Shown here: positions 6,074 through 34,568 of the stretch, one piece after another
Layout of the letters: every line of letters starts with the position of its first letter
Numbering within the stretch: the stretch's first letter is position 1
Source of the DNA: a virus
Lineage: Duplodnaviria > Heunggongvirae > Uroviricota > Caudoviricetes
Direction: 5' to 3' (one strand)
Length of the DNA stretch: 40,869 nt
Virus record (IMG/VR): IMGVR_UViG_2541047754_000003
Translations under genes and position numbers: made by a program
The notes under the pieces: generated by a model
What the model was told of the DNA's origin: nothing
Databases searched by the model: none
Seen by the model: only the letters and a program-made list of their open reading frames with translations

Positions 6074-6177
6074 GTTAAATCTCCAGATAGTCGCAGCACC
6101 CGTTGCGCCGCATATCTGGTTATTCTATTACCTGAAAAACCATATATGGATAGATAACCCATAAATACGAAAAGATA

Positions 6178-6526: not shown

Positions 6527-6560
6527 ATTTAAAGGCCGCAAGAGCGGCCTATCGTTTCGC
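6525..6560. terminator. Bidirectional intrinsic terminator between convergent genes
   Basis: Hairpin GGCCGC-AAGA-GCGGCC flanked by AAATTTAAA on one side and T-rich tract on the other. Confidence 0.5.
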
Positions 6561-7277
6561 TTTGTGCTCATCCCAGCACGTTTTGCACCATGCCATTAAG
6601 CCGTCCGCATTTTGATTATTAGGGTAAAAGCTGGTTCGTTTTCTGCGGACATTACAAATTGGGCACCACTTCATATGGCGTGTATTCTTTGGGCCATCGA
6701 GACACCTTGCACACCACTTAGTCAATCCATCTGGATTTTTTGACGATTTCCTGAATTTTTCATATGGAAGGTTTATTCTGCATCGCAAGCACTGCTTGCT
6801 ACCACTTGAAACTCTGTTAGCTGATTCTTCTTTTGGCGGCGATGCAGAAGGTATTCTTGCTGGCTCTGATACTGCCTGAGGTGCTTTTTTAGATGACTGA
6901 GACGATATGTCATCACCAGGGAATCTTCCATGATATGCCGGACGCGTTGACACTCCAGGTGGAAGCTCAGCTGTAAACGGCTTTGGCTGAATCAGTTGCC
7001 TCTCTTTTGCTAACTCCTGCTGTTTATAATATGTCTGGATTACCGCACTATCATAAGCAGGAGGTGCGGAAATATTAGGCGCATTACCTCCAGTTTTTTG
7101 AAACTGAGTAGAGGTGTGTTCTATCACCTGTGTACGATTAATCGTTATCTCCCCATCTTCGGTCTTTATCGTTTTGTTATGATTAACGACCGTACGATCA
7201 GAGATCTTAGTCTTGTTCTGGTTGATAACGTAAATAATCACCGCAACCACACCAACAACTATCCAGAAAACTTCCAT
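6549..7277 (-). CDS. Membrane-anchored protein with two C-terminal Cys4 zinc-ribbon modules; function unknown
   Basis: ATG 7277 with GAGGA RBS; N-terminal TM helix; Pro/Ser-rich linker; two C-x2-C...W-C-x2-C modules. Confidence 0.6.
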   Translation of the reverse strand: MEVFWIVVGVVAVIIYVINQNKTKISDRTVVNHNKTIKTEDGEITINRTQVIEHTSTQFQKTGGNAPNISAPPAYDSAVIQTYYKQQELAKERQLIQPKPFTAELPPGVSTRPAYHGRFPGDDISSQSSKKAPQAVSEPARIPSASPPKEESANRVSSGSKQCLRCRINLPYEKFRKSSKNPDGLTKWCARCLDGPKNTRHMKWCPICNVRRKRTSFYPNNQNADGLMAWCKTCWDEHKAKR

Positions 7278-7297
7278 TGCTTTTCCTCACAATAACA

Positions 7298-7312
7298 TTA
7301 CCTTAAAGGTAA
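7298..7312. promoter_or_regulatory. Operator palindrome TTACC-N5-GGTAA
   Basis: TTACCTTAAAGGTAA, perfect arms, between divergent genes 6549-7277 and ant. Confidence 0.6.
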
Positions 7313-7361
7313 TATCTTGCTTTCAGGTGATCAAGCGTTAAACGCAATCAACCAAATACGG

Positions 7362-7405
7362 TTGATTTTAATATTTCTTCGCGTTTATCATTACCTTTGC
7401 GGTAA
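7362..7405 (+). promoter_or_regulatory. Putative ant promoter (-35 TTGATT, -10 TATCAT) overlapped by operator TTACCTTTGCGGTAA (7391-7405)
   Basis: Sigma70-like hexamers with 18-bp spacer; perfect operator palindrome overlapping -10/+1. Confidence 0.5.
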
Positions 7406-7496
7406 ATTTACATCGCACTCCTCTTGTGCCATAGTAATCGGGCACTGGATTTTGCCAGTGCCGGGATTGGCGTCCCGGGTTACTACAGAGGCACAT

Positions 7497-7518
7497 ATGC
7501 CGCATAAGCGGTTTTTTT
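7497..7518 (+). terminator. Weak intrinsic terminator or attenuator in the ant leader
   Basis: Short GC stem (GCCGC/GCGGT) with loop ATAA followed by seven T; preceded by two stable hairpins at 7442-7478. Confidence 0.35.
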
Positions 7519-7671
7519 ATGTGTAAAGCGCACCTATTCTATGGTGGGCTGTGTGGGGGCACCGAAAGGTGCGCCGGGTCCTTTGTAGCCGGTTACGCCA
7601 ACCCTGCACAGTTCACCACCAACCGATTGGCGTCGGTAGTGGTGATTAACCTAACTACAAAGGTGATCACT

Positions 7672-8358
7672 ATGACTGCTAACGTAACCCCATCTGTTTT
7701 TCATTTTGAATCAGAGGCAACCATTCGAGCCATTGTTATTGATGGAAATCCTTGGTTTGTTGCCAAAGACGTTATTAAAGCTCTTCAACTGACAAACCCC
7801 ACTATGTCAATAAAATCTCTTGATGATGATGAAAGGGCTAAATTTAACTTAGGCCGTCAAGGCGAAACCAATATTATCAACGAGTCAGGCCTCTACACAC
7901 TGATCCTCCGCTGCCGCGATGCGGTGACACCAGGCACTATCCCCTACCGCTTTCGTAAATGGGTTACAGGTGAGGTTCTTCCTCAGATCCGCCGCACCGG
8001 AAGTTACATTAAAAACTCGCTCCCGCAGGAAGAACGCATAAAGATGGTTGCCGACCAGGTAGCCAACGCCACGGCGTCAGCAGTAATGCAGGCGATGAAG
8101 ATAGAGAACAAAACCTACAGTGCCCCGCTGAAGCCCGGCTACCGCAGCCTGATTCACTCGCCGTCTGGTGTTCTCGGCCTGACGGAGAACTCACTGCTGA
8201 TGAATCTGCTGAACCAGTTACAGGAAGACGGGCACGACGTATCGGGCGCGGCGGCAGAGCTGACCACCATGTTCTGCTACATCGTCGGTGTGAGCAAATG
8301 CCTGCGTGATATCCAGACGCACGCGGAGTACATCAACGACAAAGCAGGATTCTTCTGA
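7672..8358 (+). CDS. ant: Antirepressor (BRO-N-like N-terminal domain plus Ant C-terminal domain)
   Basis: ATG 7672 with AAGGTGA RBS; N-terminal FHFESEATIRAIVIDGNPWFVAKDVIKAL resembles BRO-N antirepressor domain; upstream part of ORF-track ORF is structured leader. Confidence 0.8.
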   Translation: MTANVTPSVFHFESEATIRAIVIDGNPWFVAKDVIKALQLTNPTMSIKSLDDDERAKFNLGRQGETNIINESGLYTLILRCRDAVTPGTIPYRFRKWVTGEVLPQIRRTGSYIKNSLPQEERIKMVADQVANATASAVMQAMKIENKTYSAPLKPGYRSLIHSPSGVLGLTENSLLMNLLNQLQEDGHDVSGAAAELTTMFCYIVGVSKCLRDIQTHAEYINDKAGFF

Positions 8359-8431
8359 CAGAACGGCGGCACATGGATGTGCCTTTAAATAATTCTGTAC
8401 AGATTGCAGACTGTTGGTGAATAGCGTACTA

Positions 8432-8446
8432 TTACCTCAAGGGTAA
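8432..8446. promoter_or_regulatory. Operator palindrome TTACC-N5-GGTAA
   Basis: TTACCTCAAGGGTAA about 60 bp upstream of the 8507 ORF. Confidence 0.6.
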
Positions 8447-8506
8447 ACGGATTGGTTTCATTTTTATTAATCCGTGTAATGAACTTATGAGATATGAGGT
8501 AATGTC

Positions 8507-8686
8507 ATGCGAAACGAAAAATTGCAGATGCGTAGAGCGCAAGCTGCCGCAAGACGTTCTTTCAATGGAAGCGTAGAGTGCGTAAAAGTTACTATGACAA
8601 AAGATCACGCAAGTCGCGTATCCCGCGCTTTCTTTGATTCTCGTAACAATAAGGAAAATTATGAGTTCGTCTGCGTCGCAGAATGA
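8507..8686 (+). CDS. Small ORF (59 aa) overlapping the next gene; candidate antitoxin or partner protein
   Basis: ATG 8507 with GAGGT RBS 6 nt upstream; 26-nt overlap with the 8661 gene; one codon below the ORF-track length cutoff. Confidence 0.4.
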   Translation: MRNEKLQMRRAQAAARRSFNGSVECVKVTMTKDHASRVSRAFFDSRNNKENYEFVCVAE

Positions 8687-9206
8687 TAAAAATCAAATTG
8701 TCAGATATAAGGGTCGAGTATTGCATACGCAAAATTTCTCGGCCCTTTGTGCATCTGATCTTGAGCTGAAGAAAGTATCTGATGCCTTTACCCAGTATTG
8801 GAAAACGGGATACCATCCATCTCTTGGTAAAGATGCTGCATTTGCTCGTCCGACAGAAATGCTTAAACTAAATGTCAGGCATACTCATGTCGATAACCAA
8901 GACTATATTCCAGAAGATAGTGATAAAAAACACACTGGTAAAAAATCATCTTGGGATGCATGGAAAAATATAGCGTCTGTGCAAGTAAAATGCATACCAA
9001 CAAGTGATTGCTTTTTAGTTTATTCGGTAAATCACAATCGTGATGCGCTGGTTATGTTTTTTGTTGACGCAGATGCCCACAACATAACTGAGCAAGAAGA
9101 GTTTAAAGAGGCAGCAATCACTATCAGTTATCAATTCTTTGAGAAAACAAAAACAGAACCAATGCCTTTAGAAGAAGATCTTTTTTCTGATAAATGGAAG
9201 GAATAA
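8661..9206 (+). CDS. Hypothetical protein with YafO-toxin-like motifs (possible ribosome-dependent mRNA interferase)
   Basis: ATG 8661 with AAGGA RBS; motifs D-F-x-Y-W-K-x-G-x-P..GKDA, H-T-H-V and D-C-F-L-V-Y recalled as similar to YafO; not confirmed by search. Confidence 0.5.
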   Translation: MSSSASQNDKNQIVRYKGRVLHTQNFSALCASDLELKKVSDAFTQYWKTGYHPSLGKDAAFARPTEMLKLNVRHTHVDNQDYIPEDSDKKHTGKKSSWDAWKNIASVQVKCIPTSDCFLVYSVNHNRDALVMFFVDADAHNITEQEEFKEAAITISYQFFEKTKTEPMPLEEDLFSDKWKE

Positions 9207-9228
9207 GCCCGCGTTGCGGGCTTTTTTG
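9206..9228 (+). terminator. Rho-independent terminator
   Basis: Stem AGCCCGC/GCGGGCT, loop GTT, followed by TTTTTT. Confidence 0.7.
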
Positions 9229-9262
9229 TGTCTGCGGATTCCCGCCCGGGCGGCGGTGGCAT

Positions 9263-9291
9263 TCGTTAAAAACAAGGCCGCGAAAGCGGCC
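9263..9291 (-). terminator. Rho-independent terminator ending the leftward virion operon segment
   Basis: Hairpin GGCCGC-TTTC-GCGGCC followed by TTGTTTTT on the minus strand. Confidence 0.6.
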
Positions 9292-9292
9292 T

Positions 9293-9304
9293 GTGACATG
9301 TCAC
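9293..9304. repeat. 12-bp perfect palindrome GTGACATGTCAC (copy 1 of 3)
   Basis: Identical copies at 26576-26587 and 28842-28853, all at gene 3-prime ends bordering the late operon. Confidence 0.6.
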
Positions 9305-9311
9305 GCTCACG

Positions 9312-9452
9312 TTATGACAAGCCTATGTACCCTGCTACACCAGATAATATCAAAATAACTGCAACAGCAAATTCGCCATCGTCAATGATACATTTACGGT
9401 TCATAACGCCAAGTGCAACAAGCGCAAACACAACAAGAATAAAAGCAATCAT
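9312..9452 (-). CDS. Small hydrophobic protein (46 aa, two predicted TM helices)
   Basis: ATG 9452 with AGGA RBS (taAGGAtgagaaATG); not in ORF track (below 60 aa); directly follows the 824-aa virion protein gene. Confidence 0.45.
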   Translation of the reverse strand: MIAFILVVFALVALGVMNRKCIIDDGEFAVAVILILSGVAGYIGLS

Positions 9453-19741: not shown

Positions 19742-20349
19742 CAGGACAACCTCGCAATGGTAAACTCGTCAACCGGTGGCTGTGGTTCCTGTGATTCATT
19801 CTGGCTATGCGAGCCAGCACTAAGAATCACGCGATTGTACATATTGAGGGCAAACGTACCGAGGTCTGCATTCCCAGTGAGCGCCATGTTAATAGCTGCC
19901 GCAAGACGCCAGGCCAACGCCTCCATAAAAATGGCATCAAACATGTTCACATCTGAAACGCGAGAGACATACTTGAGCCATGCCTGCGGCTGGTCTGTGT
20001 AGATCAACTTTCCTGTTCCGTTGGTGTCTGCACCAACTTCGTACTGAACGCGCATTGCTGCTGTTGGATTGCGTACACCAGGAAGCATAATTTCAGTAAT
20101 GCGCAGACAATCGGACGGGTACTGGTACGCATATTCCCAGTCAGGCGGTGGATTGCTCGTATCTGCAAGCGCCACGCGTTTGGTAGCAAAGTTCCAGTCA
20201 AAATCAGAAAGAACAGCATCACGGCAGGCCTCAAAGTGCAGCGAACATTCCCCCGCTTCCTTGCTGGCTTCCGTCAGGCTGTTAATACTGCGGCTGTTGC
20301 CAATATTGGACAGCGCACGATTACAGATCTCTACTACAGAGGCCATCAC
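19741..20349 (-). CDS. Tail structural protein (202 aa), tail adaptor/tubular-A candidate
   Basis: ORF with ATGA overlap to downstream 823-aa gene. Confidence 0.6.
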   Translation of the reverse strand: MMASVVEICNRALSNIGNSRSINSLTEASKEAGECSLHFEACRDAVLSDFDWNFATKRVALADTSNPPPDWEYAYQYPSDCLRITEIMLPGVRNPTAAMRVQYEVGADTNGTGKLIYTDQPQAWLKYVSRVSDVNMFDAIFMEALAWRLAAAINMALTGNADLGTFALNMYNRVILSAGSHSQNESQEPQPPVDEFTIARLS

Positions 20350-25874: not shown

Positions 25875-25951
25875 GTGGCATTAGCTCAGTTGGACAGAGC
25901 AACCGCCTTCTAAGCGGTTGGTCGCAGGTTCGAATCCTGCATGCCACGCCA
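25875..25951 (+). tRNA. tRNA-Arg (anticodon TCT), phage-encoded
   Basis: 77 nt; 7-bp acceptor stem GTGGCAT/ATGCCAC, D-arm TAGCTCAGTTGGACAGAGCA, anticodon loop CTTCTAA, T-arm GGTTCGAATCC, 3-prime GCCA; acceptor stem differs from E. coli argU as I recall it. Confidence 0.9.
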
Positions 25952-34520: not shown

Positions 34521-34546
34521 TATGAAAAGACCGCCGGGTGGCGGTC
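34521..34546 (-). terminator. Rho-independent terminator downstream of cro (tR1-like)
   Basis: 7-bp stem GACCGCC/GGCGGTC followed by TCTTTTCA on the minus strand. Confidence 0.5.
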
Positions 34547-34568
34547 TACAGAGGGTTGTAGCTGGATA

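Follow-up and report, generated by a model that had tools for sequence, protein, structure and literature searches.

A probable P1/P7 immI-type antisense-RNA module before a Bro-N antirepressor-like gene in an epsilon15-like Escherichia coli prophage

Introduction

How might the long, structured leader of an antirepressor-like prophage gene control that gene? The question is raised by ant, a gene in a 40,869-nucleotide (nt) stretch of caudoviricete DNA (IMG/VR record IMGVR_UViG_2541047754_000003), which is referred to here, at its full length, as the window. A preliminary description of this DNA placed an operator-overlapped promoter about 270 nt before the ant start and noted, between the two, a pair of stable hairpins, a terminator-like hairpin with a run of seven T residues, and another GC-rich stem. 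It proposed that these features form either an attenuator or the source of a short terminated RNA of about 120 nt, which would add a second layer of control over ant, as the sar RNA does in phage P22.

Our analysis points with high probability to the following answer: the ant leader is an antisense-RNA control module of the phage P1/P7 immI type, placed before a Bro-N antirepressor-like gene. We base this reading on RNA family membership, on the structures of the leader, on the complementarity of short recognition sites, and on the three-way coevolution of those sites. The suggestion that RNA could act as a second control layer over ant is thereby supported, with pairing sites of two RNAs, C4 and IsrK, as the likely means. 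The correct analogues are the c4-(icd)-ant immI region of P1 and P7, and isrK-STnc1160-anrP of the Salmonella prophage Gifsy-1.

The window is an integrated epsilon15-like podovirus, namely an epsilon15/phiV10-like E. coli prophage with 100% identity to strains 85.0412 and ECE170. Its identity is 90% to TL-2011b and 86% to phiV10, and a 421-bp region has matches in 235 phage records. The RefSeq prophage that is identical to the window carries no annotation at the RNA module.

Two RNA families in the ant leader

The structures of the leader are real, exceed chance expectation, and lie at or near the coordinates first proposed for them. Positions 7436–7690 have a minimum free energy (MFE) of −112.7 kcal/mol, against −85.5 ± 5.1 kcal/mol in dinucleotide shuffles (z = −5.36), and none of 200 shuffles folded as well. 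When all of the window was scanned at Rfam gathering thresholds, three matches emerged: isrK, C4 antisense RNA, and a tRNA-Arg. The tRNA-Arg gene (anticodon TCT) lies within the prophage at 25875–25951 on the plus strand. The other two matches make up the leader, with the following elements:

7442–7518, plus strand: IsrK-family leader RNA (Rfam isrK, RF01394; 56.7 bits against a gathering threshold of 50; model match 1–77)
7443–7448 paired with 7455–7460, plus strand: IsrK hairpin 1, from folding
7461–7467 paired with 7472–7478, plus strand: IsrK hairpin 2, from folding
7499–7518, plus strand: intrinsic terminator (5-bp stem 7499–7503/7508–7512, AUAA loop, U7 run 7512–7518)
7537–7623, plus strand: C4 antisense RNA (Rfam RF01695; 79.5 bits against a gathering threshold of 45; full-length model match 1–87; E = 3.9e-14)
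7542–7558 paired with 7602–7618, plus strand: C4 closing stem of 17 bp, from folding and homologues
7559–7572, plus strand: C4 hairpin 1 with a GAAA loop, from folding and homologues
7573–7593, plus strand: C4 hairpin 2 with an 11-nt loop, followed by an 8-nt single-stranded junction, from folding and homologues

The IsrK-type RNA consists of two hairpins, a single-stranded linker and an intrinsic terminator, and is the counterpart of the a1/b1 leader of P1, which itself scores 35 bits against the isrK model. Compensatory changes affect nine of the 13 pairs of the isrK consensus fold. Both 5′ hairpins that had been claimed appear on folding, at 7443–7460 and 7461–7478, and the terminator-like element is found as a stem-loop at 7499–7512 with a T run to 7518. 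Further, the isrK match from 7442 to 7518 supports a short RNA ending at this T run. The dimensions originally given for these parts were too large. Counted from the conserved promoter described below, the IsrK RNA would be about 77 nt and the leader about 230 nt long, as opposed to 120 nt and 270 nt. The terminator hairpin is weak (−7.5 kcal/mol), and read-through is therefore expected; the homologous terminator is annotated in the phiV10 record.

The C4 region forms a three-way structure (MFE −45.2 kcal/mol for 7537–7623; z = −3.6). The same fold is found in all 18 loci compared below, with compensatory changes in 15 of the 24 consensus pairs. Because the 77-nt c4 RNA of P1 covers model positions 7–83, the mature C4 RNA is predicted here at about 7543–7620, a length of some 78 nt. 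In the preliminary description, C4 had been seen merely as another GC-rich stem (7529–7574), and its complementarity to both the ant ribosome-binding site and the IsrK leader was missed. A GC-rich structure does occupy these positions, but the stem as drawn does not hold. It paired GCGCACC (7529–7535) with GGTGCGC (7567–7573), that is, an arm within the variable spacer with one arm of the internal hairpin 1 of C4. The spacer arm is absent from homologues, and the C4 fold takes the place of the proposed stem.

Recognition sites shared by C4, IsrK and ant

Two short segments of C4 have complements both upstream, within IsrK, and downstream, next to ant. The sites, named after those in the P1 GenBank record, are:

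7580–7588, plus strand: b′, CCUUUGUAG, in the loop of C4 hairpin 2
7595–7601, plus strand: a′, ACGCCAA, in the single-stranded C4 junction
7467–7473, plus strand: a1, UUGGCGU, in or beside the loop of IsrK hairpin 2, an exact complement of a′
7483–7491, plus strand: b1, CUACAGAGG, in the single-stranded IsrK linker, forming 9 bp with b′, one of them G-U
7627–7633, plus strand: a2, UUGGCGU, 4 nt after the C4 match, an exact 7-bp complement of a′
7655–7663, plus strand: b2, CUACAAAGG, forming nine Watson-Crick pairs with b′ and overlapping the ant Shine-Dalgarno (SD) sequence AAGGUGA (7660–7666)

The duplex energies are −13.2 kcal/mol for b′–b2 and −10.3 kcal/mol for a′–a2 on the ant side, and −14.4 kcal/mol for b′–b1 and −11.9 kcal/mol for a′–a1 on the IsrK side. 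When the target regions were shuffled, equally good matches arose in 9 of 2000 cases for the b sites and in 60–103 of 2000 for the a sites. Within the window, a and b sites stand together at two places only, which are those of the module itself. Elsewhere in the window, a-like 8-mers occur at 2503 and 40342, never together with b-like 9-mers. The b-type 9-mer has six matches in the window, including the module's own, against 0.46 expected. The further copies (CTACAGAGG) lie outside the module at 1117–1125 on the minus strand, and at 20334–20342 and 34546–34554 on the plus strand. A window scan found no a site near these three, which could be either chance occurrences or secondary C4 targets.

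Coevolution of the sites across related loci

Comparison across homologues, which had been suggested as a check on the leader structures, covered 18 loci, which are P1, Gifsy-1 and 16 other, diverse ones. Among them are epsilon15-like phages from Escherichia, Enterobacter and Klebsiella, as well as the Stx phage VT2-Sakai, APSE-7, Hafnia yong2, Yersinia YpM_41 and Moraxella Mcat4. The region is conserved throughout and its a-site helices covary. Every locus has an isrK or isrK-like leader, a spacer of 18–26 nt, C4, and an open reading frame (ORF) about 45–55 nt further on. In every locus, too, the a′ 7-mer has one exact complement 1–5 nt past C4 and a second in isrK hairpin 2, while the b′ loop can pair over 6–10 bp at or next to the SD sequence or start codon, and again with the isrK linker.

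The sites change in concert. Five a specificities are present among the loci (ACGCCAA, AUGCGAA, AGACCAA, GUCUCAA and CUGUCAA), and their complements are found in their own loci only (cognate 5/5, non-cognate 0/20). The b′ loops fall into 13 classes, for each of which the cognate locus gives the row maximum; the window and Mcat4 share one of these specificities. These tests were made by specificity class, after a first all-pairs version had been blurred by near-identical loops, such that 24–40% of non-cognates reached the cognate minimum. In an unguided MAFFT alignment of the whole module, the helices a1:a′ and a′:a2 are each 95.5% paired, and five of their seven pairs have changed on both sides. 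None of 500 shuffles matched the observed paired fraction or covariation score of either helix, and slid registers were 26–53% paired. The few unpaired a-site cells belong to the P1 row, which MAFFT had shifted. These formal pair counts cover the a sites; MAFFT left b1 and b2 out of register, and the b sites rest on the per-locus search. It is chiefly this three-way coevolution, as judged from sequence comparison, that argues for a function of the sites.

A small-scale example of such change is found among the closest relatives. TL-2011b and phiV10 share the a sites of the window, and their b′ differs from it by a 1-nt deletion (CCUUUUAG as opposed to CCUUUGUAG). Their b1 and b2 sites carry changes that match the change in b′, and the N-terminal third of Ant differs as well. 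From these sequences, specificity seems to have switched recently, in the way known from P1 and P7.

One further conserved element lies between a2 and b2:

7639–7645, plus strand: conserved box GUGGUGA (GGUGGUGA) after a2, complementary to the 3′ strand of the C4 closing stem at 7614–7620

This complementarity is kept in all 18 loci, including Mcat4 in its own version (GGUGGUAG:CUACCACC). The pairing reaches 95.5%, yet the box is nearly invariant, so that its covariation is uninformative. The box of this phage pairs with the spacer between the SD sequence and the AUG (7664–7671) as well, which puts b2 in a hairpin loop. Such a hairpin, sequestering SD and AUG after C4, was considered as a general feature and set aside: it is strong here (−22.5 kcal/mol, z = −3.6), but not universal, being absent in Mcat4 and P1. 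The box could have a role in processing, in an alternative fold, or in presentation of the target site.

The same comparison bears on the idea of plain attenuation in cis, in which the terminator at 7499–7518 would limit read-through, the other hairpins would tune the terminator, and no RNA would act in trans. A conserved terminator-like hairpin with a U7 run is present, as this idea requires, and Gifsy-1 transcripts read through their terminator only in part. Nevertheless, a simple attenuator leaves unexplained both the 87-nt C4 element beyond the terminator and the three-way covariation of the a and b sites. Nor did comparison of the leaders reveal a conserved antiterminator alternative. The one candidate, a helix around the terminator (7491–7496/7519–7524), was 83% paired, but 37 of 500 shuffles equalled it and slid registers paired too, which makes it indistinguishable from shuffled sequence. 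We regard attenuation in cis as very unlikely.

Promoters, operators and the coding strand

The promoter and operator features of the region upstream of IsrK are:

7407–7435, plus strand: module promoter TTTACA-17-(TG)CATAGT, with a TG extension; predicted start near 7441–7443
7362–7391, plus strand: distal promoter-like site TTGATT-18-TATCAT, the one chosen in the preliminary description
7390–7406, either strand: operator-type palindrome ATTACCTTTGCGGTAAA, overlapping the distal −10 and abutting the proximal −35
7297–7313, either strand: perfect operator-type palindrome ATTACCTTAAAGGTAAT, just upstream of the divergent gene 6549–7277

In each of the 18 loci, the −35 and −10 elements of the module promoter keep the same spacing to the isrK start. 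In the alignment of the c4-a1b1 family, its −10 aligns with the TATAGT of the P1 promoter P1c4 (formerly P51b), and transcription is expected to start near 7442 because of this correspondence. The distal site, by contrast, is kept only in the closest relative, TL-2011b. The promoter and operator that had been placed at 7362–7405 thus fare differently: the operator motif is borne out by its repetition in the window, whereas the promoter is not supported by conservation. Even so, the distal site, which lies 44 bp upstream of the module promoter, may be the counterpart of the P1 promoter P2c4/P51a, which lies 40 bp upstream of P1c4.

The operator motif ATTACC-N5-GGTAAT is present in 13 copies in the window, against 1.15 expected. 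The 17-bp palindromes start at 6177, 7297, 7390, 8431, 25537, 28730, 28748, 32490, 32552, 34498, 34883, 35595 and 35657. Several copies lie near an HTH_3 repressor-like gene (34954–35538), including one within the adjoining divergent intergenic region, and others precede accessory genes. The same junction of operator and −35 is found in eight epsilon15-like loci. By their arrangement, these dispersed palindromes look like the scattered single operators of a prophage repressor, comparable to the dispersed C1 operators of P1. We infer that the prophage repressor would control the module promoter, given the placement of the palindrome, the copies beside the HTH_3 gene, and the P1 precedent of operator Oc4.

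Both promoter sites, and both RNAs, are on the ant strand. This bears on the sar analogy, according to which a short antisense RNA from the opposite strand would act on the ant leader, as in immI of P22. The parallel is one of gene context, namely an ant gene beside the tail fibre or tailspike gene of a podovirus, and P22 sar is likewise a small RNA that limits antirepressor synthesis in a temperate podovirus. However, sar is a cis-encoded RNA that lies opposite the ant ribosome-binding site, whereas the RNAs of the window are same-strand, structured, and make short loop contacts. The minus strand was found to have no promoter-like site from 7054 to 9412 and, within the leader at 7400–7700, no terminator-like site either. 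The two leader RNAs match Rfam on the plus strand, and a minus-strand isrK match scores only 17.9 bits. We give almost no credence to sar-like control.

The regulated gene and a model for its control

The first ORF past C4 is ant itself, and no icd-like ORF intervenes:

7672–8358, plus strand: ant, a Bro-N domain protein of 228 amino acids (Pfam Bro-N, E = 5e-20; RefSeq: BRO-N domain protein)

The gene adjoins a tail fibre gene. Genes behind the module vary among the loci: some are Bro-N or ORF6N/P22_AR_C genes, and others are small icd-like ORFs (63–77 amino acids) with further genes, as after C4 in P1, yong2, Ayreon and YpM_41. Consequently, the RNA module can be viewed as a portable cassette. 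Here it appears to act on the large gene directly, as in the APSE phages. Antirepressor activity of the Bro-N protein is presumed by analogy. In ZX5, a related Uetakevirus, overexpression of a Bro-N 'anti-repressor' cut the lysogen count from 10^9 to 10^6 (PMC9782041).

Five parts of our model are drawn from work on P1 and Gifsy-1, namely the excision of C4, the block to translation, the role of IsrK as a decoy, control of the promoter by a repressor, and antirepressor activity of the Bro-N protein. The promoter at 7407–7435, flanked by the operator-type palindrome, would initiate transcription near 7442. Most transcripts would end at the weak terminator (7499–7518), yielding a 77-nt IsrK-type RNA that carries a1 and b1. 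Transcripts that read through would carry C4, which, by homology with P1, would be excised as a stable RNA of about 78 nt. Its b′ loop and a′ junction would then pair with b2 and a2 and block ant translation, with a premature stop to transcription as a possible secondary effect. At low promoter activity, mostly IsrK and few read-through transcripts would be made, and stable C4 bound to a2 and b2 would keep ant untranslated. Under strong transcription, IsrK would be in excess, and as a decoy it would bind C4 and free the ant ribosome-binding site. In P1, C4 is reportedly processed from the same transcript, its 5′ end by RNase P, and termination before ant is said to follow.

C4 might instead act mainly on transcription, in the manner of the P4 CI RNA with seqA and seqC or of Rho polarity in P1, such that its pairing with a2/b2 or a1/b1 would lead to premature termination. 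For P1 it is established that blocked icd translation leads to termination before ant, which fits the notes in the P1 record. The P4 CI RNA is likewise processed from the leader of its own operon and has complementary sites up- and downstream, and the Gifsy-1 authors cite it as a structural analogue (PMC4825925). They also suggest a CI-like role for STnc1160, and their transcriptional fusion rose 8-fold with IsrK. On the other hand, the CI RNA, which terminates transcription, belongs to a different Rfam family, and no match to it was reported in scans of the window. Further, b2 overlaps the SD sequence of ant itself, of which occlusion of the ribosome-binding site is the simplest reading, and the translational effect in Gifsy-1 (139-fold) far exceeds the transcriptional one (8-fold). 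A mainly transcriptional role is conceivable but rather doubtful. An effect on transcription is nonetheless compatible with the translational block and may add to it.

Several points weigh against the immI-type reading as a whole. The P1 mechanism runs through icd and Rho-dependent polarity, and an icd-like ORF is absent here. The Bro-N protein has no significant similarity to P1 Ant1, an ANT/KilAC domain protein. The c4-a1b1 model (RF03163, 'a1, b1 targets of C4 antisense RNA') matches 7429–7481 at full length in a permissive scan with only 26.9 bits, below its gathering threshold of 46.7, compared with 51.0 bits in P1, 50.5 in VT2-Sakai and 48.1 in Gifsy-1; the a1 site is nevertheless present in its hairpin. 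For Gifsy-1, activation has been attributed to translation of 'orf45', which overlaps C4, and constitutive STnc1160 strengthened the toxicity of IsrK, where a simple titration scheme predicts otherwise (PMC4825925). Finally, the processing of C4 and the efficiency of the terminator are predictions for this prophage.

Comparison with known systems

The P1/P7 immI region has the same order on one strand, namely operator, promoter or promoters, a1/b1 leader, C4, a2/b2 at the ribosome-binding site, and antirepressor gene. The P1 GenBank record labels a1, b1, c4, a2, b2, icd, ant, the C1 operator Oc4 and a tandem pair of promoters, arranged as described here. The C4 fold is the same, and so is the use of the a′ junction and the b′ loop. 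The P1 record and a 2025 review both describe C4 as a repressor of icd/ant translation that base-pairs in the region of the ribosome-binding site. In P1 and P7, as among the relatives of the window, specificity differs between related phages (cf. P1/P7 heteroimmunity). P1/P7 immI has the icd relay, which is lacking in the window, where b2 overlaps the SD sequence of the 228-amino-acid gene itself; the regulated protein is of the Bro-N type as opposed to ANT/KilAC. The window leader has a stronger isrK match than that of P1, with a clear U7 terminator. The window operator, a palindrome of 17 bp, belongs to another repressor, and whereas P1 is a plasmid prophage, the module sits here in an integrated podovirus. 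As a regulatory system, the element departs from P1 on two counts only: it has no icd relay, and its antirepressor-like protein is of another type. Weinberg et al. 2010 (PMC2864571) defined the c4 and c4-a1b1 motifs.

In Gifsy-1, both Rfam families are found in the same order before an antirepressor-like gene, with isrK at 644–720 (79 bits) and C4 at 746–829 (69 bits) on the reverse complement of NC_010392, before anrP. This prophage shares the a specificity UUGGCGU/ACGCCAA with the window and, as here, has a short terminated RNA and a read-through mRNA from one promoter. Its b loop is UCGGUGAU, compared with CCUUUGUAG in the window. AnrP, judged by homologous genes of Stx phages and SW-37 (ORF6N/P22_AR_C), is another type of protein, and isrJ is not next to the gene in the window, unlike in Gifsy-1. 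Experiments on Gifsy-1 found that the isrK promoter gives the short RNA together with a read-through mRNA that is transcribed but untranslated, that the read-through transcript gives rise, by processing, to STnc1160, an RNA of about 80 nt, and that IsrK in trans raises anrP translation 139-fold and transcription 8-fold (PMC4825925). Only for Gifsy-1 is IsrK known to bind Hfq and to activate the antirepressor-like gene downstream of it in trans (PMC4825925), and IsrK and STnc1160 are abundant in lysogens (PMC7067206).

The Gifsy-1 study reads the C4 region as a 45-codon ORF and IsrK as an activator, and does not name C4 (Hershko-Shalev et al. 2016, PMC4825925). Its results can be placed on the module. 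With 644 as +1, the published compensatory pairs G28/C162 and G31/C159 are G-C pairs of a1:a′, the published pair G114/C175 falls in the C4 closing stem, and the AUG contained in the invariant UAUGGUGGG at the C4 5′ end is the first one of orf45 (nt 107). Because the mapped pairs and this AUG fall on C4 elements, 'orf45'/STnc1160 can be equated with C4 RNA, and helix b of 'structure A' with a1:a′. As far as their sites and folds tell, this shows the Gifsy-1 IsrK/'orf45' system and the P1 C4 system to be the same module. The explicit identity of IsrK/'orf45' with C4 is the part of our results that goes beyond the literature found. We found no explicit statement there that IsrK is a C4 leader; the two are named together only in the APSE annotation paper and in an unrelated Xylella paper, and the 2025 review still lists the IsrK and C4 systems apart.

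In the published model, IsrK acting in trans opens a closed mRNA, an upstream ORF is translated, and Ant is made by coupling or as part of a longer protein, with no part for antisense C4. Reporter and mutational data stand behind it (PMC4825925), and in the window there is an open frame from an ATG at 7519 that runs in frame into ant, giving an ORF of 279 amino acids. This ATG stands directly behind the U run and lacks an SD sequence, and the frame is stopped in 15 of the 18 loci; in HEMP4, APSE-7 and IdasGG, the corresponding ORF has only two codons. By this comparison, the 279-amino-acid frame is probably fortuitous. Other coding explanations that we weighed and set aside with it are the ORFs at 7317–7526 (plus strand), 7368–7505 (minus strand) and 7517–7609 (minus strand). 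Moreover, the nucleotide sequence is kept as RNA structure with compensatory changes, and the first AUG of orf45 in Gifsy-1 sits within the invariant part of a C4 stem. As an account of the window, translation of an upstream ORF is improbable.

The closest architectural match is found in the APSE phages of Hamiltonella (Rouil et al. 2020, PMC7313666; LR794146 and others). Their records annotate an sRNA of the isrK Hfq-binding family, an sRNA of the C4 antisense family, and putative a′ and b′ sites directly upstream of BRO-N, without icd (PMC7313666). Nucleotide identity to the window is about 69%, and phage type and host differ. The APSE specificities, AUGCGAA for a and CCUGUUUAG for b, are both unlike those of the window, and the epsilon15-type operator palindrome is lacking.

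We speculate that IsrK and C4 represent two halves of one widespread switch. IsrK would serve as a dedicated anti-antisense decoy, orf45 would be C4, and the threshold at which antirepressor is made would depend on how transcripts from one repressor-controlled promoter divide between termination and read-through. In the window, this switch would act directly on the Bro-N ribosome-binding site with no icd relay, and the a and b specificities would form immunity-like classes among co-resident prophages. In our judgement, the arguments for and against this wider proposal are evenly balanced.

Distribution and significance

The module is real but ordinary, being a typical unannotated member of known families that is very widespread. 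Sequence related to 7442–7671 is present in 2325 of 5426 complete E. coli genomes (43%), in 1840 of them at a coverage of at least 80%, with up to six module-related places per genome. Among eight sampled E. coli matches, three lack an annotated feature and five lie under a coding sequence labelled 'ash family' or 'Icd-like'. E. coli 85.0412 (NZ_CP122448.1), which holds this prophage, has a second module match. Cross-talk among co-resident modules of the same a specificity is conceivable.

The module would explain the silencing of the antirepressor-like gene beside the tail fibre gene, and it corrects the gene map of the prophage. It represents a common, largely unannotated regulator of prophage induction. 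Our comparison also suggests that isrK, at present outside Rfam clan CL00128, belongs in the clan of C4 and c4-a1b1, and that the Gifsy-1 data merit a second reading.

Neighbouring genes

On the other side of the promoter region, the divergent gene at 6549–7277 (minus strand) encodes a protein of 242 amino acids with an N-terminal hydrophobic segment, a Cys-rich C-terminus, and a weak, sub-threshold Stc1 match. The palindrome at 7297–7313 sits 20 bp upstream of its start. phiV10 lacks the gene, and its record annotates no more than a remnant. Just past ant, a further palindrome (8431–8447) is followed by an ORF of 59 amino acids (8507–8686) and a YafO-family toxin gene (8661–9206; Pfam YafO_toxin, 25.9 bits), and these two ORFs may be a toxin-antitoxin pair carried as a moron.

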